DNA from: Escherichia phage EPFV3-03/2025
Length of the DNA: 64,000 nt
Sequence record: PV435126.1
Strand: one strand, 5' to 3'
Shown here in pieces: positions 3,427 through 64,000 of the stretch; the stretch's first letter is position 1, and each line of letters starts with the position of its first letter. The notes beneath the pieces are model-generated. The model was not told the DNA's origin and searched no databases. It worked only from the letters and a program-made list of their open reading frames with translations. A program made the translations under genes and the position numbers.

Positions 3427-4326
3427 ATGGCAAATCTTAACAGCTTTAGCACTCGATGGAAACAAGATATCACAACCAATCTCTCTGCAGGCGATATCCT
3501 TTCTGCAATTTACGAGGCTTTGGATGATAAAGCTACTTCAAAATCGGTTTGTACCAACCCGTTAATTCCTATGGTAATGAAGGTGATTGAGCGTAGGTTG
3601 GTATCCGGATCTGATAAGTGGACATATCTGGATAATGGAGGCCACACTTACTCCAACGGCTATGTCGATATAAAAGTAGAATATGCGGTATCATATCGCC
3701 GGAGCGGCTCTGTAACTTTCAACTTCTCTGGTGGTTTCCGATCTCTGGCAACTTCACCTTTTGTTTCCTCAGAGGAGAAGTTTGAACTTCCGTTCCTTTG
3801 GATGATGGCTAACGCGACAGGCAAAACCCCTGTAAGCATTCGCGTAAAATACAACTACAACGGATCTAGTAAGATCTATGCTGAGAGTGTCTCAGCAAGT
3901 TTTTATTTTGTGATGGGGGATGGAATCCTCAAACATATAAAGATGTGCGATATGCATGATGTTATAAATGAAGTGACTGATAAGAATGTTCTGGTGAAGG
4001 ATCTCAACAATTTTTATACACCAGGGGACTATTACGTCAACCGTCCACTGTGCATCTTTAATGCTGCACACCCTTTAGGTGAGTATTTGATTGCCAATAG
4101 TGATATTGCCAATAACCGCTTCGAGGTAGCAAGAGTACAGAATGAGGTGTTGACATCTTGCAAGAGCGGTGATAAGTTTACCGAAGAAGAGATGGGTGTT
4201 TTAGAGATGATGGGATATAAGTGTAGCCTTTGGGTAGATGAGGTGTTTAATGACGGCATCTATGGACAGGATATTTACCCGTTAAAGAAGTATACTGATT
4301 CCAGTTTAATTTACGCGGGGATTTGA
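3427..4326 (+). CDS. hypothetical protein (299 aa)
   Basis: ORF with AGGAG 10 nt upstream of ATG; first gene of plus-strand block. Confidence 0.55.
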   Translation: MANLNSFSTRWKQDITTNLSAGDILSAIYEALDDKATSKSVCTNPLIPMVMKVIERRLVSGSDKWTYLDNGGHTYSNGYVDIKVEYAVSYRRSGSVTFNFSGGFRSLATSPFVSSEEKFELPFLWMMANATGKTPVSIRVKYNYNGSSKIYAESVSASFYFVMGDGILKHIKMCDMHDVINEVTDKNVLVKDLNNFYTPGDYYVNRPLCIFNAAHPLGEYLIANSDIANNRFEVARVQNEVLTSCKSGDKFTEEEMGVLEMMGYKCSLWVDEVFNDGIYGQDIYPLKKYTDSSLIYAGI

Positions 4327-4601
4327 CTATGATGAAGGCATGTGGTAGTGTATACTATGTGGGTGAAAATGTTCAGGCAGACAGTGTGTGGAAATCCATT
4401 AAGTCCACCACCGATGATGCCTTCTTGAGCGGGTTATGTTTCCCCAATCCCGGAGACATTCTCCCTTACCCTGGGGATTTTGTTGTCAACAAGACGGACG
4501 GTTATACCGTGTGCCTGATGGTAGAAAAAATCTTTTTAGACACTAGACACAATCACCGTCTTGTGTTAAAATTTCAAGAATGTAAAATGACAGTTGCCTA
4601 A
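4323..4601 (+). CDS. hypothetical protein (92 aa)
   Basis: ORF overlapping upstream stop by 4 nt; no motif recognised. Confidence 0.4.
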   Translation: MTMMKACGSVYYVGENVQADSVWKSIKSTTDDAFLSGLCFPNPGDILPYPGDFVVNKTDGYTVCLMVEKIFLDTRHNHRLVLKFQECKMTVA

Positions 4602-17143: not shown

Positions 17144-20100
17144 ATGAGCATGTGGTCGTTCGATTTTGAGGCCTCTGGCTTGCTGGAAGACCCAGATCTT
17201 TATTATCACTGCGGTTTGTTTAAAGAGCTGAATAAGAACCGTTTTATGCTGTTCCTCCCCCTAAATGACCGCACACACTACTCTGAAGAGGATGTGGAGA
17301 AAGCTAAGAACTTCATTCTGGCAAAAAAGACCCTTTATACAGATTTTGAGGCTCGCATAGCAGATTTTTCAGAGTTGGAAGGCTGGCTTACAGGTAATTC
17401 AGATTGGTCACCTACGGCTTTGAACTGTCATAACTGCTACAGCTACGACTTTATGCTGATGGAAAGATTATCCGGTATTCATTTTGATATGTTCCGTGAT
17501 CCTAAATGCATGGGAACTATCAACGACCACCAGGTTAATCTGTTTGATACGTTAGCGATGAGTCGAATCTTGTGGCCTGACCGCCCTTTGCCAAAAGGTT
17601 GTCCGGACGCAGTATTCAATCCAGTTACCAAGAAAATGCAGCCTGTTGGGCCTCATGGCCTTATGGCATGGGGCTATGCCCTTGGTAACCAGAAAGTTCA
17701 AATCGATGACTGGCGTGAGCTTCCGCTGTGGAAGTATGTGGATCGTGTGTTCGAGGACGTTATCATTCAGGAGTTGCTCTGGAAGGAGTTGGTAGCTGAA
17801 TCAAAAGGTGTATTCTACGGCAAATCTGACATGCAGAACTTTATGTATGACCCTGCCAAAGAGAAGCCTAAAGGATTCAAGAAGATTACCTGGAAGAATG
17901 CATTACGCCGAGGCATGCTGCAGCATTTCCTGATGGAGCTGCAGGCTCGACAGGGTGTGTATTTCGACATAGATGGGGCTATTGCTTTACGTGACCGCTG
18001 CGATGCGTGGATGAAAGAGATCGCTGATCGTGTTGAACCACAACTTCCTTTAAAAGAGTTATCAATGTCTCAGCGGCCTAAGTTCCCTGAAAAGCCGTTT
18101 AACCAGGATGGGACAATCTCTAATAACGGTTGGAAATGGTTAAAAGACAAGCTTGGCTATCCTGTGGATATGGGTGCTTTAGAATTCAAAGCTCCGCCTA
18201 AGCGAGCCTTTACCTCCACAGGAGATGTCAGCAAAATGGGGATAAAATGGTGTGAAGAGATGGGCTGCAAAGACCCCGATAAGATGGCTGATTTCTTAAG
18301 GGGGTATATTAAAGGAACCTCTACACCGCACCCTTTACCTAAAGAACTAATGGATCAGGCAATAAGTGATCTGCAGCAGAAGCGGATGCCTGACTGCAAG
18401 ATACCTATGAAGATCAGCAACCAGGACGACATCAAGCGATACCTGATCAGTGCTGGTTGGCTCCCAACAATGTGGAGAACTAAGGATGTAACTAAAGACA
18501 GCAAGAAGAAAGCTTTACCTGATGCAGATGTTGATGCACGAGTATATGCATATATGGACGAGCTTTTGGAGTCAGAGTATTGTGACCTGATTATCAACTT
18601 CTGGAACAAAACTGATGCCAAGTTCCAGACAACCGTGCACAAGTTCCGAAGCTTCCCTAACTCAGAAAGGATTAAAAAGGAAGTGTTTGGGAAGATACGT
18701 AGAAAAGCCAGAGCGCTTATTACTTCTCCGCAACTGAAAGATACGTTTGGACACCTGTGCCCGAATCTTGAAAAATTGAACGGGGAGATGGCTAAAGATA
18801 TCGTTTTGTGGTTATCATTGCGAAACCGCAGATCGGTCCTTGATCCAATCAAGGAGGATAAGGTTGATACTGGTCTTCTTAATCATCCACGTTTGAAGAT
18901 TGACCATAAGCTTCCTGCTAAAAGTTCTGGATTAACAAACACTTCAAGACAGAAACACAGCATTTGTGCAAACATGCCTAAACCATCTCCTAAAGTGGTT
19001 ATGGGTAAAGAGATGCGTAGTCTGTGGGGTGTTCCTCCAGGATACTTTGAGATCGGTATTGACGGGTCTAACTTAGAGCAGCTTATTGGGGCTTGGGGTG
19101 CCTTTGAGTTTGACAACGGCCTGTATTATGATGTTGTAAGTAACGGCGATGCACACTGTTATTCAGGAGATACACAAATTCTCACGGAGAAAGGGTGGGT
19201 GAGGTTTGAAGATCTTGATCCGGGAACACAAGTGTTCCAGTACGATCACAACACCTCGTCGATGAACCTTGTTACTCCATTAAATTACGTTAAGCGTAGT
19301 TATTGTGGGGATATGTATCATTTCCACAACAGCAGTGTGGATTTTATGGTTACAGATCAACACAGGATGCTGACCGTGGATCACAGAAGCAATAAATTGT
19401 TTGAAGATTTGGCAAAAGACCTGAAAGCAGGTAAAGGGTCTAATTCAGGAAGAAGGTTTATCCATGCGGCAGAGTTTTATGGGAATACAACCTTATCTCC
19501 TGCCCAGGTTAATTTGCTTATTGCTATTCACGATGATGGGTACTTGCATACAAATAAGGACGGCAGCATCGTGTGCAGGATTCAGGCCGGGAAGGGCAGA
19601 AAAGTTGCAACGCTTTTAGATACTTTTTCTGCTCTAAGCCTTAGTTATGTAGAGCAGAGCGGGAAAACCACAAAAGGAGGCTTACTGGCGAGAAGGTTCC
19701 AATTCCACGTTCCGTCCTGGGTATTTGAGTTTTTGGACAGCAATAAGGATTTCACCTACAACCTGATGGACCTTGATAAAGAATCTAAAAACCTGTTTAT
19801 AGCTTCTTTATCTAACTGGGACGGGTGGGTATCTCCCGAAGGTGGAAAAGTTGCCTACTACTCTCAGGCCGAGTGCAGGAAGAAATCTGTAGAGGTTGTG
19901 TCTGCGCTGGCTACTCAGTGTGGTTTACGGAATAATACGGTGGCGATTCACAAAAAAGGTCGTTCCGTACAGCACAGAATCACGATTGGTAGCAAACAGA
20001 GAGCAGGGTTGCTGACACTATCTAAAGAGCCTGTCGGGGTGAGCGGTTCTTTGGTTTATTGCGTTACCGTCCCTTCTGGAGCAATCATTGTGAGAAGGAA

Positions 20101-20536
20101 TGGTAAAGTGGCAGTGTGCGGTAACTGTAATAACGCCAAAGCTTACTCTTCTGTAGCAGGCAAGGAGATTTCCCGTAACGATGGTAAGCCTGTCACGTAC
20201 GGTGTTATGTACGGGGCACAAAAAGATAAAGTTGCAGACATGCTGGATATCTCTCCAGAGTTGGGGCAAAGGGTAATCGATGCGCTTTGGGATGCCAACC
20301 CAGGTCTTAAGGGGCGTAAAGAGGATCTGGAGAAATTCTGGGAAGCAACAGGTAAGAAATTTATCTACTCTTTTGACGGTCATGCCATCTGGACCCGATC
20401 TAAACACTCTTTACTTAATGCATACCAACAGAATGGTGGTGCATCGTTGTGTGACTTAGTTGGGATACTCATGCACCACCAAATGGTGAAGCGTGGGTGG
20501 TACGATGAAGGTGTCCGTCGTATTATTTATTACCAT
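17144..20536 (+). CDS. family A DNA polymerase, exon 1 (contains intein)
   Basis: 3'-5' exo motif SFDFEASG; motif A-like DGSNLEQL...GDAH; T7-like motif B RNDGKPVTYGVMYGAQ after the intein; ORF lacks motif C unless spliced to exon 2. Confidence 0.9.
19157..20125 (+). mobile_element. intein (323 codons) with LAGLIDADG-like endonuclease motifs inside DNA polymerase
   Basis: Begins CYSGDTQIL (block A), TDQH (block B), LLIAIHDDGY and FIASLSNWDGW (LAGLIDADG-like), ends ...VYCVTV...RRNGKVAVCGN followed by Cys. Confidence 0.75.
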
Positions 20537-20812
20537 AAATAACATTGTGGCTTCATAGAGTAATCTATGTCGAATAACCTCTTTAACTGCGGGAAGCCTA
20601 AACCTTATGGCAAGGTAATCCGCAACGAAGCGCTCAAAAGAGCGAACGCTCAGAGGCCATTCCGAAAGGAAGTAGACCAGCAAGTGCGGTCGAAATGGGA
20701 GGATTCCTGTGGTTGCTTATCATAGGAATATGAGATGGTCCGATCCTACGTGAAAACGTATGGCTATGCACGTAATGGTGCGGGGTAGCTTAACGACCTA
20801 CCTGAACTATTG
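20537..20812 (+). mobile_element. group I intron (276 nt, no ORF) in DNA polymerase gene
   Basis: Starts after exon U (cat|), ends with G before gat; P-like aactgcgggaag 20585-20596, Q-like aatccgcaac 20617-20626, S-like gagatggtccga 20732-20743; splicing restores in-frame HDE motif C. Confidence 0.6.
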
Positions 20813-57681: not shown

Positions 57682-57791
57682 TGTTGCACCCCCTCTTCAT
57701 CCTCATGATGTTTCTTTTCACGCTTGTGTTTTTTCTTAAGCTCAAGCGCAATCTCTTTTTTGTACGCCTTCTTCAAGGCCTTTTTAGCCAT
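57678..57791 (-). CDS. hypothetical small basic peptide (37 aa)
   Basis: ATG 57791 after GAGGAGG; Lys-rich; GTGA overlap with next gene; downstream of promoter 57821-57850. Confidence 0.35.
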   Translation of the reverse strand: MAKKALKKAYKKEIALELKKKHKREKKHHEDEEGVQQ

Positions 57792-57820
57792 TTGGCACCT
57801 CCTCTGCTTTCATTACGCTA

Positions 57821-57850
57821 ATTATAACCAACTTAACAAGACTTTGTCAA
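57821..57850 (-). promoter_or_regulatory. sigma70-type promoter (minus strand)
   Basis: -35 TTGACA (rc of 57845-57850), 18-bp spacer, -10 TATAAT (rc of 57821-57826). Confidence 0.5.
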
Positions 57851-57853
57851 CAA

Positions 57854-58327
57854 TTAGTCAACCTGAACCCAACCGCCTGCTACCTTTTTAAACATTCTTT
57901 GGTTATCGCTGCCTCGGAATGGTTTCTTGGTTGGTAAATCTTTTACATACTTTCCATCAATGACGATATCAGCCAGTTTAAGAACATCACTAGAGATATG
58001 CTCAAATGTGAACCCAGTATACACAAGAATAGTTTTCTTGTCACCAAACTTTTCCTTAATTCTCCTCATAAGGTCAATAATACCTGGCTCATTATAAGTA
58101 GCCAAAGGCTCTCCACCAAGTAAAGAAATACCGCATACAGATTCATTGTCTAAATCCAACAAAATTTTCTGCAAATCTTCTTCGGTGAACTCTCTTCCTT
58201 TATCTTTTGACCAAAATGCTTGATTAAAGCAACCAGGACAAGCGTGTGGGCACCCAGATACCCACAAAGCTGTCCTAATACCTGGTCCCTCGGTGTAAGA
58301 TATCTCTGTATACCCGACAATATTCAT
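57854..58327 (-). CDS. nrdG: anaerobic ribonucleotide reductase activating protein NrdG (radical SAM)
   Basis: MNIVGY...EGPGIRTALWVSGCPHACPGCFN matches NrdG N-terminal CxxxCxxC cluster; start taken at ATG 58327. Confidence 0.85.
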   Translation of the reverse strand: MNIVGYTEISYTEGPGIRTALWVSGCPHACPGCFNQAFWSKDKGREFTEEDLQKILLDLDNESVCGISLLGGEPLATYNEPGIIDLMRRIKEKFGDKKTILVYTGFTFEHISSDVLKLADIVIDGKYVKDLPTKKPFRGSDNQRMFKKVAGGWVQVD

Positions 58328-58440
58328 ACATACTCCGCATCGCATTTAGGACAATGCCAAATAAAATCGTCCAGTGCCTTACACCAACGAAGATTGCAAT
58401 GACAACCACACTTGCAAATTTTATAAATACCTGTAGACAT
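58324..58440 (-). CDS. hypothetical Cys-rich small peptide (38 aa)
   Basis: ATG 58440 after AGGAGG; CKCGCHC...HCPKC; ATGA overlap with nrdG start. Confidence 0.35.
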   Translation of the reverse strand: MSTGIYKICKCGCHCNLRWCKALDDFIWHCPKCDAEYV

Positions 58441-58503
58441 ACTGCACCTCCTAGTTTACTGTGTAACAACAATATGCCACATCCTTGTGACTTTTGTCAA
58501 GTA

Positions 58504-59466
58504 TCAGCAACCACAACTTCCGTAGTGCTTAACCCGTTCTATAACCTCCGCTTGCTTACCTTTATTGTAAGGACGAGAGTTTGGACTGGACAGATACCCG
58601 GATACGCGTCTGATCACACTGATCGTTCCTTCTTCATGGTTTCCACATTCTGGGCATACAAAGCCTTTAGCTGTTGCACTGAACTCACCAGAGAATCCAC
58701 ACTTAAGACATTTATCCACAGGCTGGTTAATACCAAAATACATAATGTGTTTATATCCGAAATCAACAAGAGCTTCCAAAGCATCTAAGTTGTTTTTCAG
58801 ATTTGGTGTCTCTATGTACCCAATGTTGCCACCAGAGGAGATCATAGCAAAACCTTCCTCATACTTCCACTTATCAAAAGGCGAGCTATTGATCCATACT
58901 GGCTGATGGAAACTGTTGGTGAGGTATTCATGCTCGTGCTTCAACACTTCTGGGTATTCACGATCCAGACAGGTTGCAGCTTTATAGCATAAACTCTCAG
59001 AAGGTGTGCCGTACAAGCTAAATGCTAGTCCACTTTCCTTCTTGTATCGCTCACAAGCATCTTTCATGTGCTGAAGGATTCCAAGAGCTAAAGCCTTGTC
59101 ACCCTCTCTGCCCAAAATCTGACAGGTTTCATACACACCAATATACCCAATACTGATGGAAGCGTACCCGTCATAGAAGAGTTTATCGATACTCTCTTCA
59201 GGATCCAGGCGAGCAAGAGCTCCTTCACACCACATGATAGGGTTCTGCCCTGCCTTTGTTCCTTTTAGACGGTTAACCCTTACAAGGTGAGCCTCATATG
59301 CCAAATCCAAATATTCGTCAAGAACTGCAAAGAAATCAACACCTTCCGTTTTAGCTTTTGCCGCAATCATTGGTAGGTTAAGGCTAACAACACCCAAGTT
59401 GAATCTGCCAAGGTATTTCTCCTCGCCTGTTACAGGGTCGCTATATTTCGATAAGAAACTTCTACA
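58504..59466 (-). CDS. nrdD: anaerobic ribonucleoside-triphosphate reductase NrdD, exon 2
   Basis: Begins CRSFLSKYSD...GRFNLGVVSLNLP; C-terminal glycyl-radical motif RRVSGYL and Cys cluster. Confidence 0.85.
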   Translation of the reverse strand, partial: CRSFLSKYSDPVTGEEKYLGRFNLGVVSLNLPMIAAKAKTEGVDFFAVLDEYLDLAYEAHLVRVNRLKGTKAGQNPIMWCEGALARLDPEESIDKLFYDGYASISIGYIGVYETCQILGREGDKALALGILQHMKDACERYKKESGLAFSLYGTPSESLCYKAATCLDREYPEVLKHEHEYLTNSFHQPVWINSSPFDKWKYEEGFAMISSGGNIGYIETPNLKNNLDALEALVDFGYKHIMYFGINQPVDKCLKCGFSGEFSATAKGFVCPECGNHEEGTISVIRRVSGYLSSPNSRPYNKGKQAEVIERVKHYGSCGC

Positions 59467-60228
59467 CATTATGTTCAAGGTGGTTCGCAAGGCCACCCCC
59501 GCACCTTTACGTGCTGCTGCATGTCCCCATGCAGATCAGACTATATCTTCACACTTAGTGTGTCTACCATTTCGAGTGTCATCAGCTTACACCCTACACC
59601 GCTACATTCATCACGGTTAGTCGTTAGGCATTTCGTAACAGAACTCGTAATCATAGTTATTAGGTGCACCACGTTTCAGGATAGCAGATATTCTTTTTCT
59701 ATCTATTCCTAAAACATCAGCACAACATCTCAGACTCTTAAAGTGAATAACCACACCAGTTAATTTGTGGGTGGCTTTCACCCCGTGACATCTTGTGTAA
59801 AAAGCATAACAGTTGTTGTCGTATCCTTCTTGAGTATTGTCTGGGCAAGCTCCCCACTCAAGGTTGTATACGCTGTTATCTTTCCTGTTGTCACCTTTGT
59901 GCTTAACATATGGTAAATTGTCTGGATTTGGTAAAAACGCTTCAGCAACAAGTCTGTGAACCCTTAGGCAAACAGTCTTTTTGTTCTTGCGTATCCTGAC
60001 AAGACGGTAACCTGTGTTTATCTCTTCCCACGAATGAATAATTCTTTCATTTTCGTATCGGGTGCAATAAACATTGCCCATCTCGTCAATTTCATAACCT
60101 TCAAAATCACGAATTTGTTTTCTCATTTCAGGACTCCTCTTAGTCAGGAGTTCTGTTACGTTTAGCACGGGATTGTCCGTTCTGGAGTTTCCCCGTTTAG
60201 ATAGATTTTACATGAGCAGTTATAGTTT
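59467..60228 (-). mobile_element. group I intron in nrdD carrying an HNH homing endonuclease ORF
   Basis: Exon 1 ends ...TSMG (after U), exon 2 begins CRSFL (after G); S-like element aagatatagtct (rc of 59538-59549); splice joins two halves of a full-length NrdD. Confidence 0.65.
59617..60126 (-). CDS. HNH homing endonuclease (intron-encoded, 169 aa)
   Basis: VHRLVAEAF...NP...VKHKGDNRKDNSVYNLEWG HNH motif; ATG 60126 after AAGAGGAG. Confidence 0.8.
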   Translation of the reverse strand: MRKQIRDFEGYEIDEMGNVYCTRYENERIIHSWEEINTGYRLVRIRKNKKTVCLRVHRLVAEAFLPNPDNLPYVKHKGDNRKDNSVYNLEWGACPDNTQEGYDNNCYAFYTRCHGVKATHKLTGVVIHFKSLRCCADVLGIDRKRISAILKRGAPNNYDYEFCYEMPND

Positions 60229-61389
60229 ACCCATGCTTGTTACTTTGCCGTCTGTTGAACCTGTCACTTTACGATTCAGCGGAACAGAAACAAAGTCAGG
60301 ATAAATCCGCTCTGCAGAACATTCTAGAGCCAATCGTTTCAAATCGTAGTTAGGATCCCCAGGGTTCATGTTGACACCCTCCTCTAAGAAGAACAGCACT
60401 TTAGGGAACACAGGTGTGATCCGTTCTTCACCAAGACCCATTTTGTGAACTTTCAAGTAGTTTTTGGTAATCATTCTACCAAAGACCGAGGTATCTAGCC
60501 CTAAACTTAATGTGATGAATGGAGTTTGCCCGTTGACAGAAGTTAACGTATTGATTTGGTAGAGCAAAGTTTGCATACTATCAAACACGTCTTTATCTGT
60601 CATTTGCATTGCAACAGTCTCAGCATCTGGCAACCAATGTTCCTGACAAAATTTAAGGTTCTTCTCGTAGGTTGCTTCAGCATACTGTGCCAGATAATGA
60701 TCAATATGGCTCATGGTCTGACCACCATATTGAGCACTAGCTACTGCACTAGAGATTTGGCTAAGGATTGTTGTTGCAACCCCTATTGACTTCGGCTTAC
60801 TGACATGGGCGTTGCCAATGTTGAATCCGTTTTCCAGCATATCCGGATAATTTACCAAACAACAGTTTGTTAACGGACTGATCAGGTAGTCAAGATCATG
60901 CACATGGATGAAGCCTTTGTTGTGCTCTTCGGAGACACGGTCTGGCAGGATCTGTGTTGATGCAAGATGTTTGCTAAGGATTCCTGCAAGCAGGTCACGA
61001 TGAGTGTGTACATGATTAGTAGGCTTATTTGCGTTTTCTTTTGTAAATTCATCACAAGTACGATCCAAGAAGCCGCTAATATCTGCAAGCAGTTTTCCAC
61101 CTGCCTCTCTGTTATTATCCCTTGTCTGTCTATACTGGATGTATTCTCTGGCTGCACATTTTAAACCCATATCCATAAGAGCATCTTCAACAAGGATATG
61201 GATATTTTTTACAGAGATCGTGCACTGGTCAGTTGGCAGATTGTTGGCAACAACTTCATTAACCGCACAGGCAATCCGGTAAGCTTCTTCTTCAGTATGT
61301 CCAGACTCAAGTAAGGCGGACTCTGCCGCCTTGATCACCTTAATTCCGTTATAAAACTCTTCTCTACCGTCCCGTTTTACAACTTTCAC
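60229..61389 (-). CDS. nrdD: anaerobic ribonucleoside-triphosphate reductase NrdD, exon 1
   Basis: N-terminal ATP-cone-like MKVVKRDGREEFYNGIKV; ends ...KVTSMG at the splice site. Confidence 0.85.
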
Positions 61390-61664
61390 TTTTTCTCTCC
61401 AAAACCATTCTTAACAAAAGAGATGAAATCGTCAGCACCACCTATGTGGATACTGTCAAGGTTGCTTTCCAAGAAGATCTGAGGCAACGTTCTGGGAACA
61501 AATGGGCTACACTTCTCGATAAGCTCTTCTTTTGTGTATCCTTCACCTAGCGTCTTGTATACGAAAGGTATGCCTTTACTGACTGCAAATTCTTTTGCTC
61601 TTACACAATGTGGGCAGTTATCCTTACCGTAAATGATGATGAAAAAAGATTTTTCGCAGCTCAT
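61386..61664 (-). CDS. glutaredoxin/thioredoxin-like protein (92 aa)
   Basis: CPHC active-site motif near N-terminus (IIIYGKDNCPHCVRAK); sits between nrdD and nrdB. Confidence 0.7.
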   Translation of the reverse strand: MSCEKSFFIIIYGKDNCPHCVRAKEFAVSKGIPFVYKTLGEGYTKEELIEKCSPFVPRTLPQIFLESNLDSIHIGGADDFISFVKNGFGEKK

Positions 61665-61667
61665 ATA

Positions 61668-62756
61668 TTAAAACTCCCAAATTTCTTCTTCAGCGTCGTT
61701 AACAGTTGTGTTGACGCGGTAGTCAGTGTTCGACATTTCTTGGTTCGCCGTCTGTTGCAATGAAGGTTTCATCCACACCTGCATAAACGGTAGCGGGTCC
61801 TTTGTTGGCGGCACAAAGTCTTTGTCGATGTCGTAATAATCATAAATCGGTGAGCAGTTATAGTCAACCCATTCTTTAAGCAACGGTGAATTAAGACCTA
61901 TAATCGCTCTTCCTTCGCTGAAAATATAGTCACTCCAACCGTACTCCTTGGTCCGCACTTCGTCAAGAATTTCTTTTAACTCACCCTTAATCTCAAGAAA
62001 GCTTTGCTCCCATGCAGGATCATCAAGCAGGATATCGATGATAGCAAAATCACCTTTCGAATGCAGCATTTCATCAAGCATAATTTTTTGAACAAGTTGT
62101 GCCACTTGAACAAAAATACCTTGCTCAGCTACTGCGAACGTACATGCAAAACTTGCAATAAACTCAATACTTTCTAGAGCTAAAAGTGCAAAAAGTGCTC
62201 TAAGGATACATTTCCGTACAACATCTTCTTCAACACTGGAAGGATCCAGTCGGTATTTTGCACCAATAACCTCAAGCTCTTGCATATATTTGACAATAAC
62301 TCCAGATCTGCTCAGCACGTTCTGGTTTTCCTGAATCTCTTCTATAATCTCGCGAGCATTAGGAAGGCATTGTCTAACAATCTCTGAGTAAGTTAGTGCA
62401 TGAAGAACCTCAATCTCAGACTGCTTCATCAACAAGGTGAAAAGCTCACTGTTGGTGATAAATGGTGAAAACAGACAAATGATAGATCTTGCTGCAACAC
62501 TGTCTGCCTCCCATTGCCACATCAGTGTCTGCACCATCACATCGTAAGTTGACTTTGAGCATGTTACGAAATCAGAAATAGACTGTGACAAATCTACTTC
62601 GTCCTCTGCCCAATCTTGTTCTTTTTGTTTTTTGTATAGTTCAAACAGCTGTGGATACTTTTTGTTAATAGAGTCGTACATCCCCATCTGCTGTCCTAGA
62701 AACAGCGGATAATCACCAGTTTTATGAGCAGTGTTCTCAGTATTAAATACGGACAT
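61668..62756 (-). CDS. nrdB: ribonucleotide reductase class Ia beta subunit NrdB (362 aa)
   Basis: N-terminal similarity to NrdB; paired with nrdA upstream. Confidence 0.9.
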   Translation of the reverse strand: MSVFNTENTAHKTGDYPLFLGQQMGMYDSINKKYPQLFELYKKQKEQDWAEDEVDLSQSISDFVTCSKSTYDVMVQTLMWQWEADSVAARSIICLFSPFITNSELFTLLMKQSEIEVLHALTYSEIVRQCLPNAREIIEEIQENQNVLSRSGVIVKYMQELEVIGAKYRLDPSSVEEDVVRKCILRALFALLALESIEFIASFACTFAVAEQGIFVQVAQLVQKIMLDEMLHSKGDFAIIDILLDDPAWEQSFLEIKGELKEILDEVRTKEYGWSDYIFSEGRAIIGLNSPLLKEWVDYNCSPIYDYYDIDKDFVPPTKDPLPFMQVWMKPSLQQTANQEMSNTDYRVNTTVNDAEEEIWEF

Positions 62757-62794: not shown

Positions 62795-64000
62795 TTACAG
62801 TGCACAACTTTCGCAATACGGATCTTCAACTGAACTATCTGCAATCAAAGGATAGTTCTTTCTTGTTTCATCTTCAGCCTGTTTCTTCGCGTGAAGCTCC
62901 TCTGTCAAAGAGTCACCAGCACCAACCCTAGAGTTTAAGTAATACCATGTCTTCATCCCGAATTTAGTAGCACGGATAAGATACCCAAGCTGCTCCTTCA
63001 TTGAAATTTTACCATCTTTCAACTTGGTGTAATCAATATATAGGTCAGCACTGATTGCCTGTCCTGTGAATTTTTGAATCACAGCATACATATCAATCAT
63101 GTCGTTAGTATCAACGTCCCAAGCCGAGGTATAATACTCTTTCAGTTCATCATATTCAGGAACGATAAACAGCACCTGTCCTTGTGGCGACTTTTTAAAG
63201 ATAATGTGCTCACGGACAGGATAAACCCCGTTAGTTGTGTTTGTTGCCAACGAGGAGCTTTCATTAGGCATATATGCTTCAAGAACGCTATTACGTAGTC
63301 CACCGTTTTCAATAATTTCTTTACGTAACCCTTCCCAATCCTGCTTAAGAGAAGGATCTTTCACCACACTATCGACCTCTTTGTTATAAGTGTCGATTGG
63401 TAACCAACCCTCTGGGTATTTTGTTTTATGCATCCACTCGCAGACACCACGCTCTTTTGCCAATCGTAAACTTGCCTTATGCAAGCTGTAGCTGTGAAGC
63501 TCTGCAAGATCGTGAACAAGCTGTTTACTTTCAGGAGACCCGTAAGCAACCTTGTGGCTGGCAATAAAATGTGCAATATTGGTAAGGCCAACCCCGATGG
63601 ATCTGCGTTTTTTAACAGTGCTCTCCATATTTTCATACGGATATGTCATGATTTCCATAACATTGTCAATCATAAGCACAGTGTAGTATGCAACATCCTC
63701 ATACTCCTCTGGGGTAACCCTTCCAGCTACAAGGGATGATAGGAAGCACAATGCAACCTCACCATCATCAGCATCGTACTTGAAGATATTACGCATATCT
63801 GAATAGCCTTTTGTCGGAAGGGCTATCTCTGCACACAGATTACTTGAATAGATTACATCTTTAAAAGGTGTATGCCTATTCATCTCATCTGTCCAGTACA
63901 CATACAGCCTGCCTACCTCGGTACGCTGCGTGATCAGTTCAACAGCAAGGTCTCTAGCACGGATCCATGTTTTAGGAATGCTGTCATCTTTAGCGATACG
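62795..64000 (-). CDS. nrdA: ribonucleotide reductase class Ia alpha subunit NrdA, C-terminal part (5' end outside window)
   Basis: SSNLCAEIALPT active-site segment; C-terminal ...CESCAL; frame open to window edge. Confidence 0.9.
   Translation of the reverse strand, partial: RIAKDDSIPKTWIRARDLAVELITQRTEVGRLYVYWTDEMNRHTPFKDVIYSSNLCAEIALPTKGYSDMRNIFKYDADDGEVALCFLSSLVAGRVTPEEYEDVAYYTVLMIDNVMEIMTYPYENMESTVKKRRSIGVGLTNIAHFIASHKVAYGSPESKQLVHDLAELHSYSLHKASLRLAKERGVCEWMHKTKYPEGWLPIDTYNKEVDSVVKDPSLKQDWEGLRKEIIENGGLRNSVLEAYMPNESSSLATNTTNGVYPVREHIIFKKSPQGQVLFIVPEYDELKEYYTSAWDVDTNDMIDMYAVIQKFTGQAISADLYIDYTKLKDGKISMKEQLGYLIRATKFGMKTWYYLNSRVGAGDSLTEELHAKKQAEDETRKNYPLIADSSVEDPYCESCAL

Follow-up and report, generated by a model that had tools for sequence, protein, structure and literature searches.

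nrdD Is Interrupted by a 762-nt Insertion

We analyzed a stretch of 64,000 nucleotides (nt) from Escherichia phage EPFV3-03/2025 (PV435126.1; the window, below), in which nrdD, the gene of a class III ribonucleotide reductase (RNR), is interrupted. Sequence comparison identified the source as an rV5/FV3-like E. coli phage (Vequintavirus): vB_EcoM_SYGMH1 (SYGMH1) is 99.1% identical across the 3.1-kb region, and other FV3/rV5-like phages (Vequintavirus) are 94–98% identical. The minus-strand gene order is nrdB, glutaredoxin, nrdD, nrdG, and all coordinates at this locus refer to the minus strand. nrdD matches are found in two open reading frames (ORFs), 60220..61389 (389 amino acids, aa) and 58504..59496 (330 aa). 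Both match Pfam NRDD, taking positions 1–263 and 263–562 of the 562-position profile, with the same break point. An initial annotation of the window, made from the letters of the sequence, had read these ORFs as a single NrdD of about 707 aa, whose gene is interrupted by a group I intron with an HNH homing endonuclease gene inside it. Protein alignment, RNA fold, and the identity of the enclosed ORF support this interpretation.

Joining 61389..60229 to 59466..58504 gives an in-frame coding sequence (CDS) of 2124 nt, which encodes 707 aa without an internal stop. Exon 1 (60229..61389) carries the Pfam ATP-cone domain and NRDD positions 1–263 of 562; its GTG start overlaps the glutaredoxin stop codon, and it ends in ...AGC ATG GGT. 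Exon 2 (58504..59466, stop codon included) carries NRDD positions 263–562 of 562 and Gly_radical, and starts with TGT AGA, where TGT encodes Cys388. The gap between them, 60228..59467, is exactly the 762 nt originally proposed, and its boundaries are fixed to the nucleotide by the intron-free allele of ECP2303. In that phage the exons are contiguous (...ATGGGA|TGTAGG...); its sequence aligns to window positions 61500..60230, is 98.3% identical to exon 1 up to 60230, and then resumes in exon 2. The insertion reads AAACTATAA at the 60228 side and ACATAATG at the 59467 side.

At the junction, ...KVTSMG|CRSFLSKY..., the last base of exon 1 is T (U in the transcript) at 60229 and that of the insertion is G at 59467, in keeping with the exon-U/intron-terminal-G rule on which the junction had been placed. 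The joined protein matches T4 NrdD (1H78) with E = 2e-168 and without a gap across ...VTSMG|CRSFLS...; nothing is missing or duplicated at the junction relative to T4 NrdD or to a second NrdD of solved structure. Cys388 aligns with T4 Cys290, and the insertion thus falls between Gly387 and Cys388. T4 Cys290 is the thiyl-radical cysteine, and Cys388 is the catalytic cysteine of the window protein.

The Insertion Has a Predicted Group IA2 Fold

Judged by its sequence and its covariation with related introns, the insertion is a group I intron whose predicted subgroup IA2 fold is complete from P1 to P9.2, with P7.1 and P7.2, a U·G pair at the 5′ splice site, and a terminal G. The evidence for assigning 59467..60228 (AAACUAUAA...ACAUAAUG) as a group IA2 intron comprises the empty-site comparison, a partial match to RF00028, covariation, and the RF00028 score of an ORF-less allele.

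Covariation was analyzed in seven introns: that of the window; those of phiWec187, F95, and EC106, which occupy the same nrdD site; the sunY introns of T4 and HY03; and a terL intron of an Aeromonas phage. The same architecture could be parsed segment by segment in all six other introns. The alignment was rebuilt in the same segment-wise manner; plain MAFFT alignment of the ORF-deleted introns had misregistered the variable hairpins. Across 13 helices with 67 pairs, 96.8% of 462 cells form standard pairs, compared with 32–42% when partners are slid by 1–3 columns. Changes in both partners are seen in 35 of the 67 pairs; across 500 shuffles, the observed value was not attained for any of five measures. 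The 13 helices include the conserved group I core, P3–P4–P5–P6 and P7–P8–P9 with the P3/P7 pseudoknot. The covarying helices are P3, P4, P6a, P7.1, P7.2, P8, P9.1, and P9.2. When the ORF was swapped for a tetraloop, a minimum free energy (MFE) fold recovered every nested helix (P1, P4–P9.2) at −91 kcal/mol (z = −4.6).

At the 5′ end, the exon strand of P1, CAUGGGU (60229..60235), pairs at 7/7 positions with the internal guide sequence GCUCAUG (P1 3′ strand, 60211..60217), with a U60229·G60217 wobble at the 5′ splice site. The guide is identical in the T4 and HY03 sunY introns. Only two 7-mers in the 2124-nt spliced CDS are able to pair with it, and the true 5′ splice site is one of them. In P1, 42/42 cells (six introns) are paired, with a compensatory change from C-G to G-C in EC106. 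A P10 partner, CUAUA (60221..60225), pairs with exon 2 over its initial 5 nt, UGUAG; in F95 and EC106 P10 extends to 8 bp despite differing exons, a length reached by only 4–6 of 2000 shuffles. The segment 60167..60205 comprises the P3 5′ strand (60205..60200), J3/4, and P4-P5-P4′. Both P3 and P4 are paired in 42/42 cells, with compensatory changes in 4/6 and 2/6 pairs, respectively. The P6 5′ strand (GC), J6/6a, and the P6a 5′ strand GUAACAGAACUC follow at 60148..60166, and the last of these is a perfect 12-bp complement to 59646..59635. The resulting 12-bp P6a closes the ORF-bearing loop, and 5/6 of its pairs covary across the intron family. Its 3′ strand GAGUUCUGUUAC, together with J6a/6 and the P6 3′ strand (GC), occupies 59628..59646, a stretch that lies wholly within the HNH coding sequence.

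The P7 5′ strand GACUA (59618..59622) pairs with UAGUC (59543..59539), matches P7 of RF00028, and overlaps the HNH stop codon TAA (59619..59617). Between P7 and P3′ lie the P7.1 and P7.2 hairpins (59617..59574), the extension that marks subgroup IA and the placement expected of subgroup IA2; both hairpins covary. P7.1 is paired in 34/35 cells, with 3/5 pairs compensatory, and P7.2 in 35/35 cells, with 3/5 pairs compensatory by the tool count and 4/5 by a separate script. The P3 3′ strand GGUAGA (59568..59563) and the P8 hairpin (59562..59550; 4/5 pairs compensatory) together span 59550..59568. J8/7 and the P7 3′ strand (59538..59549; AAGATATAGTCT / AAGAUAUAGUCU) match the RF00028 consensus gAAGAUAUAGUCu exactly; the near-consensus S element that the initial annotation had recognized is this AAGAUAUAGUCU, at 59549..59538. 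P9, P9.1, and P9.2 occupy 59479..59534, with compensatory changes in 5/5 pairs of P9.2 and 3/4 of P9.1. The intron ends in the terminal guanosine (omega-G) at 59467, a position read from the sequence and bounded by the empty-site comparison, and joining GGU|UGU there restores a 707-aa NrdD colinear with both T4 NrdD and the intron-free allele.

A natural ORF-less copy of the intron was found when IMG/VR was scanned with the HNH protein: a single locus was retrieved, in which only the last 12 residues of the protein were matched. This copy (IMG/VR UViG_2974717474_000001; L014, 1402..1691, 290 nt) represents the same intron, again at MG|C. A clean 479-nt deletion has taken out 94% of the HNH gene along with its start codon and ribosome-binding site (RBS), leaving the ribozyme intact. 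What is left, 290 nt, shares 99.3% identity with the phiWec187 intron and about 91% with the window core. Against RF00028 this copy scores 70.4 bits (E = 3.8e-17; gathering threshold 50), and the Rfam alignment agrees with our helix assignments.

An HNH Endonuclease Gene Occupies the P6a Loop

The ORF enclosed by P6a (59617..60126) starts with ATG at 60126, ends with TAA at 59617, and encodes 169 aa plus stop. As originally annotated, it belongs with HNH endonucleases and has its own RBS, AAGAGGAG, 7 nt upstream of the ATG. It matches the HNH endonuclease families PHROG 59 (E = 4.5e-32) and PHROG 959 (E = 1.3e-25), and aligns over its full length with I-HmuI (1U3E; residues 3–166 to 4–172, E = 6e-8). 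The His and both Asn of the HNH motif align with those of I-HmuI (VKH...DN...YNLEW). Compared with its phiWec187 counterpart, the protein is 91% identical, and the ratio of nonsynonymous to synonymous substitution rates (dN/dS) is 0.037 over the full length. By this measure the HNH gene is under purifying selection.

The gene and the ribozyme share sequence. The last 11 HNH codons (...Y E F C Y E M P N D stop) double as the P6a 3′ strand, J6a/6, the P6 3′ strand, J6/7, and the P7 5′ strand, and the same nucleotides are present in T4 sunY, which has no ORF at this location. At the other end of the gene, a predicted hairpin, ACUCCU-GACUAAG-AGGAGU (60133..60151; MFE −12.4 kcal/mol, z = −2.5), buries the Shine-Dalgarno sequence AAGAGGAG (60141..60134). 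Equivalent RBS-sequestering hairpins are predicted in phiWec187, where they show compensatory changes, and in F95 and EC106.

The HNH homologue of EC106 (Felixounavirus; L009, 1992..2470) is frameshifted after ...AKEGY, and its annotated CDS is cut to 273 nt. J6a/6 of EC106 reads UAAAU, so that the ORF would stop five codons before the end of the window ORF regardless.

Distribution of the Intron and Signs of Mobility

The intron is present in 17 and missing in about 55 Vequintavirus-like records, with flanking identity above 93%; ECP2303 and FV3 both lack it at the MG|C site. Linked to the intron is a 48-nt tract of the 3′ exon (59419..59466), containing one extra codon, which is identical in the window, SYGMH1, and navn and differs in ECP2303 and FV3. 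The intron-type tract is found in 17 records and the alternative type in 55 intronless records, a complete linkage. All examined intron-plus alleles also have T instead of A at position −1. This is a putative co-conversion tract: asymmetric linkage of this sort would result from co-conversion that began at a break a short way downstream of where the intron is inserted. Alternatively, the tract could be the endonuclease-immune half of the target.

Between the window (Vequintavirus) and phiWec187 (Justusliebigvirus), identity is 85% in the intron and 67% in the flanking exons. Vibrio phage F95 and EC106 carry this intron and HNH gene at the identical MG|C site, in nrdD genes whose products have only 25–36% protein identity. 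Taken from sequence comparison, the pattern of presence and absence, the linked tract, the conservation of the intron above that of its host gene, and the dN/dS of 0.037 are indirect signs of mobility.

Escherichia phage V18 (KY683736; L012, 151..285) has no MG|C intron yet carries the intron-type 3′-exon tract. Precisely at the position of the missing intron, its sequence is longer by two nucleotides (ATGGGATATGTAGAAG, compared with the spliced sequence ATGGGTTGTAGAAG), which shift the nrdD reading frame, and the region is unannotated. The two nucleotides could reflect imprecise intron loss, a scar of endonuclease-cleavage repair, or a sequencing error.

Other insertions in nrdD were seen in related phages. 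FV3 (L002, 1173..1970) has a different, HNH-bearing insertion at G287|Q288. At the same position navn (L004, 1172..1428) has an ORF-less, group I-like insertion with a weak RF00028 score of 30.1 bits; it also carries the MG|C intron and a third nrdD insertion with a 933-nt ORF near the C terminus (about 3470..4560). The nrdD gene of F95 (L006) is in at least four pieces, with three insertions. These comparisons mark nrdD as a hot spot for insertions in related phages.

Neighboring Genes and a Second Interrupted Gene

Upstream of nrdD lies the glutaredoxin gene (61386..61664), which matches Pfam Glutaredoxin, is annotated in the same way in relatives, and overlaps the nrdD start with its stop codon. 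Downstream lies the activase gene nrdG (57854..58345; Pfam Fer4_12 and Radical_SAM). A scan of 57700..62000 for promoters and terminators returned sites no more numerous than in shuffles, and no internal promoter of the HNH gene can be proposed from it. We also considered a split nrdA at the window edge (62795..63901) and rejected it; the frame runs off the window, and nrdA of SYGMH1 is intact (771 aa). About 25 GenBank records labelled 'Campylobacter phage' (MG0656xx, host C. jejuni, unannotated) are 94–95% identical to window positions 58400..61500; from this identity they look like mislabelled or contaminant rV5-like coliphages.

On the plus strand, a second group I intron was detected at 20527..20762, probably extending to about 20808 (RF00028, 64.7 bits, E = 4e-14). 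This intron, at the 3′ end of the DNA polymerase ORF, contains no ORF, and the tail at its 3′ side (GCACGUAAUGGUGCGGGGUAGCUUAACGACCUACCUGAAC...) is similar to P9.1/P9.2 of the nrdD intron. In SYGMH1 the downstream piece is labelled 'hypothetical protein', so the polymerase CDS is probably mis-annotated as truncated. The polymerase ORF itself (17144..20542, plus strand) encodes 1132 aa; the SYGMH1 counterpart has 809 aa. Residues 672–995 (19157..20128, plus strand) make up the additional 324 aa, which start with CYSGDTQILTEKG and end with ...VAVCGN followed by C, in intein-like fashion, and give a weak match to Pfam Hint_2 (E = 8.7e-4). The polymerase gene therefore seems, by these sequence features, to carry both an intein and an intron.

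A Probable Mobile Intron and Its Alternatives

We consider it highly probable (about 0.93) that the 762-nt insertion is a mobile group IA2 intron in a Vequintavirus nrdD gene, for which we infer splicing, endonuclease cleavage and its site, and translational control. The intron would be transcribed within a grx-nrdD-nrdG message, and its RNA would fold into the P1–P9.2 ribozyme. An external guanosine would attack after U60229, held in the U·G pair by the guide GCUCAUG; the freed exon 1 would then attack after the terminal G59467, with P10 helping to align exon 2. Ligation would give GGU|UGU and a continuous 707-aa NrdD in which the Cys388 codon is the first of exon 2. With the HNH RBS buried, ribosomes are probably restrained from crossing the ribozyme core at the time the RNA needs to fold. 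When intron-plus and intron-minus phages infect the same cell, the endonuclease would introduce a nick or cut close to MG|C in the intron-free nrdD, and recombinational repair from an intron-plus genome would copy the intron and about 48 nt of the 3′ exon.

Several observations weigh against this interpretation. The covariation alignment was hand-registered on the proposed structure, with GAAA in place of the ORF loops, and the paired-cell measures are biased upward as a result; given the slid-partner control and the independent MFE fold, we do not regard the covariation as an artefact. P7 is invariant in 7/7 introns, and covariation neither supports nor contradicts it. The window P10 is only 5 bp long, a length equalled by 15% of shuffles. 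The window copy scores 32.9 bits against RF00028 (E = 1.9e-6, 59517..59751), below the gathering threshold of 50. This permissive match places P3′, P8, J8/7 (GAAGAUAUAGUCU), P7′, and P9 correctly in the 3′ 150 nt and forces the 5′ half of the model onto ORF sequence. As to the enzyme, the Pfam HNH_3 score is 20.1 bits, under the cutoff of 24.8, and the residue before the catalytic His is Lys (VKHKGDN; 59893..59904, residues ~74–77), where I-HmuI has Asp. Finally, the linked 3′-exon tract could reflect selection for immunity to the endonuclease and not co-conversion.

The covariance search to which the initial annotation had looked for the group I fold thus succeeded in part: the ORF-deleted copy at the same site exceeds the gathering threshold, and the window copy does not. 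We regard the count of covariation, helix by helix, as decisive. We attribute the low score of the latter to its 510-nt ORF, which sits in the P6a hairpin loop and cannot be spanned by the model. At the gathering threshold, a whole-window Rfam search found nothing at the nrdD locus and only the second intron at 20527..20762; at this threshold Rfam also missed the ORF-bearing or divergent introns of FV3, navn, F95, and phiWec187, and only the T4-type core passed.

Were the insertion unable to splice, nrdD would yield two separate polypeptides, and these would associate to give an active reductase. Directly before Cys388 and in frame with exon 2, the intron ends in an AUG (59467..59469), at which database annotators start the second 'NrdD' fragment. 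Split yet functional phage RNR genes are known from an RNR survey (PMC3653736), and nrdA of Aeromonas phage Aeh1, split by mobE, offers a precedent. Against this, the AUG directly follows the P9.2 hairpin and no Shine-Dalgarno sequence lies ahead of it, and the break would fall between Gly387 and the catalytic Cys388. The ribozyme helices are moreover all intact and covarying, and of just two sites in the CDS that the guide can match, one is the 5′ splice site. The ORF-deleted L014 copy retains the whole ribozyme, as would be expected only if splicing were under selection. Two separate polypeptides are thus a very improbable outcome. An intein or a translational bypass element in place of an RNA intron can be rejected as extremely improbable: inteins do occur in this genome, as the insert in the polymerase suggests, but the exon 1 frame is closed by a TAA stop two codons past the junction (GKL*), the HNH ORF, with a start and RBS of its own, is not fused in frame, and the insertion has no Hint domain and an RNA fold that is that of a group I intron.

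Less easily dismissed, though still unlikely, is an intron that splices and no longer moves, with an HNH protein that is dead or re-purposed (for example, as a maturase or regulator) and vertical spread only. The Lys before the catalytic His and the sub-threshold HNH_3 score would fit such an element, as would the decay of the endonuclease gene in relatives, by frameshift in EC106 and by the 479-nt deletion in L014. The Asp of I-HmuI at this position is metal binding, and activity of the window protein is thus not guaranteed. Homologues have Lys (EC106) or Cys (F95) here, and because the K-H/C-H variant is common to intact homologues in three phage groups, we view it as a subfamily trait and not a lesion; from these alignments, the subfamily may have a different metal-ligand arrangement. 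Full-length constraint on the protein relative to phiWec187 (dN/dS 0.037), the patchy presence of the intron among genomes more than 95% identical, the tightly linked exon tract, and the conservation of the intron above its host gene across genera all speak against loss of mobility.

Relation to Known Introns

The mobile intron proposed here resembles the T4 nrdD (sunY) group IA2 intron, with which it shares the host gene, the ribozyme lineage, the architecture (P1, P3–P9.2, P7.1/P7.2), and the guide GCUCAUG. Long identical blocks, such as AAAUGCCNAACGACUA and GAAGAUAUAGUCU, are common to both. Over 190 nt its core shares 73.6% identity with the T4-type sunY intron of HY03, and the T4-type core scores 65.7 bits against RF00028. 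For T4 sunY, splicing has been demonstrated, and a hairpin there sequesters the RBS of the endonuclease gene (PMC2988022). The T4 intron differs in being inserted within the codon of Tyr180 (AYE|YEV, corresponding to window L276|Y277), whereas the window intron lies at Gly387|Cys388 (T4 G289|C290), 111 codons downstream. It also carries the GIY-YIG enzyme I-TevII in the P9.1 loop, in contrast to an HNH gene in the P6a loop, and is 1033 nt long compared with 762 nt. We therefore rejected orthology to the T4 sunY/I-TevII element: site, enzyme, and loop are all different, and only the ribozyme is homologous.

Both 5′-exon sequences, UAUGAGU at the T4-type site and CAUGGGU in the window, fit the guide GCUCAUG, although the sites are 111 codons apart. 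One ribozyme lineage with an unchanged guide might thus have reached two nrdD sites by guide-directed transposition (through reverse splicing or selection among ectopic insertions), followed by independent capture of the endonucleases. We put this forward tentatively, on the sequences of the two sites, as a possible history that we do not favor. If it were true, the HNH gene would reuse pre-existing core sequence for its last 11 codons, and later stages of a homing cycle would be visible in relatives: the EC106 frameshift, the L014 deletion, and the possible loss or scar in V18.

Among other phage elements, the T4 td intron is likewise an IA2 intron with an ORF, that of I-TevI, in the P6a loop, and there a hairpin buries the RBS and restrains translation while the intron must fold (PMC2988022). 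The td host gene is that of thymidylate synthase and its enzyme is of the GIY-YIG family, and no late promoter or operator was identified in the window intron. I-HmuI, encoded in the DNA polymerase intron of Bacillus phage SPO1, is the closest solved structure and likewise a phage group I intron-encoded enzyme, and both the HRLVA...H...N...NLxW HNH motif and the C-terminal DNA-binding part align with it. It differs in host gene, target, and the Asp replaced here by Lys, and identity is about 30%.

Within the Vequintavirinae, CB7 has HNH-containing introns of the same element type in terL, DNA polymerase, nrdA, and nrdB, whose splicing was confirmed by reverse transcription PCR (PMC7344957). 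The host genes are others, and no interruption of nrdD is reported for CB7. In rV5, also in a different host gene, the terL intron shares 78% identity in its 3′ part with the window intron; the rV5 paper reports only terL introns (PMC3606486). In the available part of the RNR survey, six split phage nrdD genes are given, among which the window intron is not identifiable (PMC3653736). GenBank holds unpublished, annotated copies of the same intron and HNH gene at MG|C in SYGMH1, HMD-6, YP-6, navn, phiWec187, EC106, and F95, labelled 'nrdD (x2) + HNH homing endonuclease' or, in EC106, '# Phage intron'; none of these entries gives intron boundaries or a joined CDS. We found no paper describing this nrdD intron in the open-access literature text.

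The nrdD intron is a new and well-delimited case of a thoroughly known type of element and does not overturn current understanding. For annotation, it means that nrdD here and in at least 17 sequenced relatives is best recorded as one joined CDS with an intron, not two fragments and a stray endonuclease. As a rule, the codons targeted by phage introns and homing endonucleases are those that are most conserved and essential for catalysis, and the intron provides a cleanly delimited case: the codon hit is that of the thiyl-radical cysteine of a class III reductase. The comparison with T4 presents the same ribozyme with different endonucleases at different sites in one gene, and the ORF-less, frameshifted, and intron-free natural alleles are handy material for the study of how mobile introns are assembled and decay.

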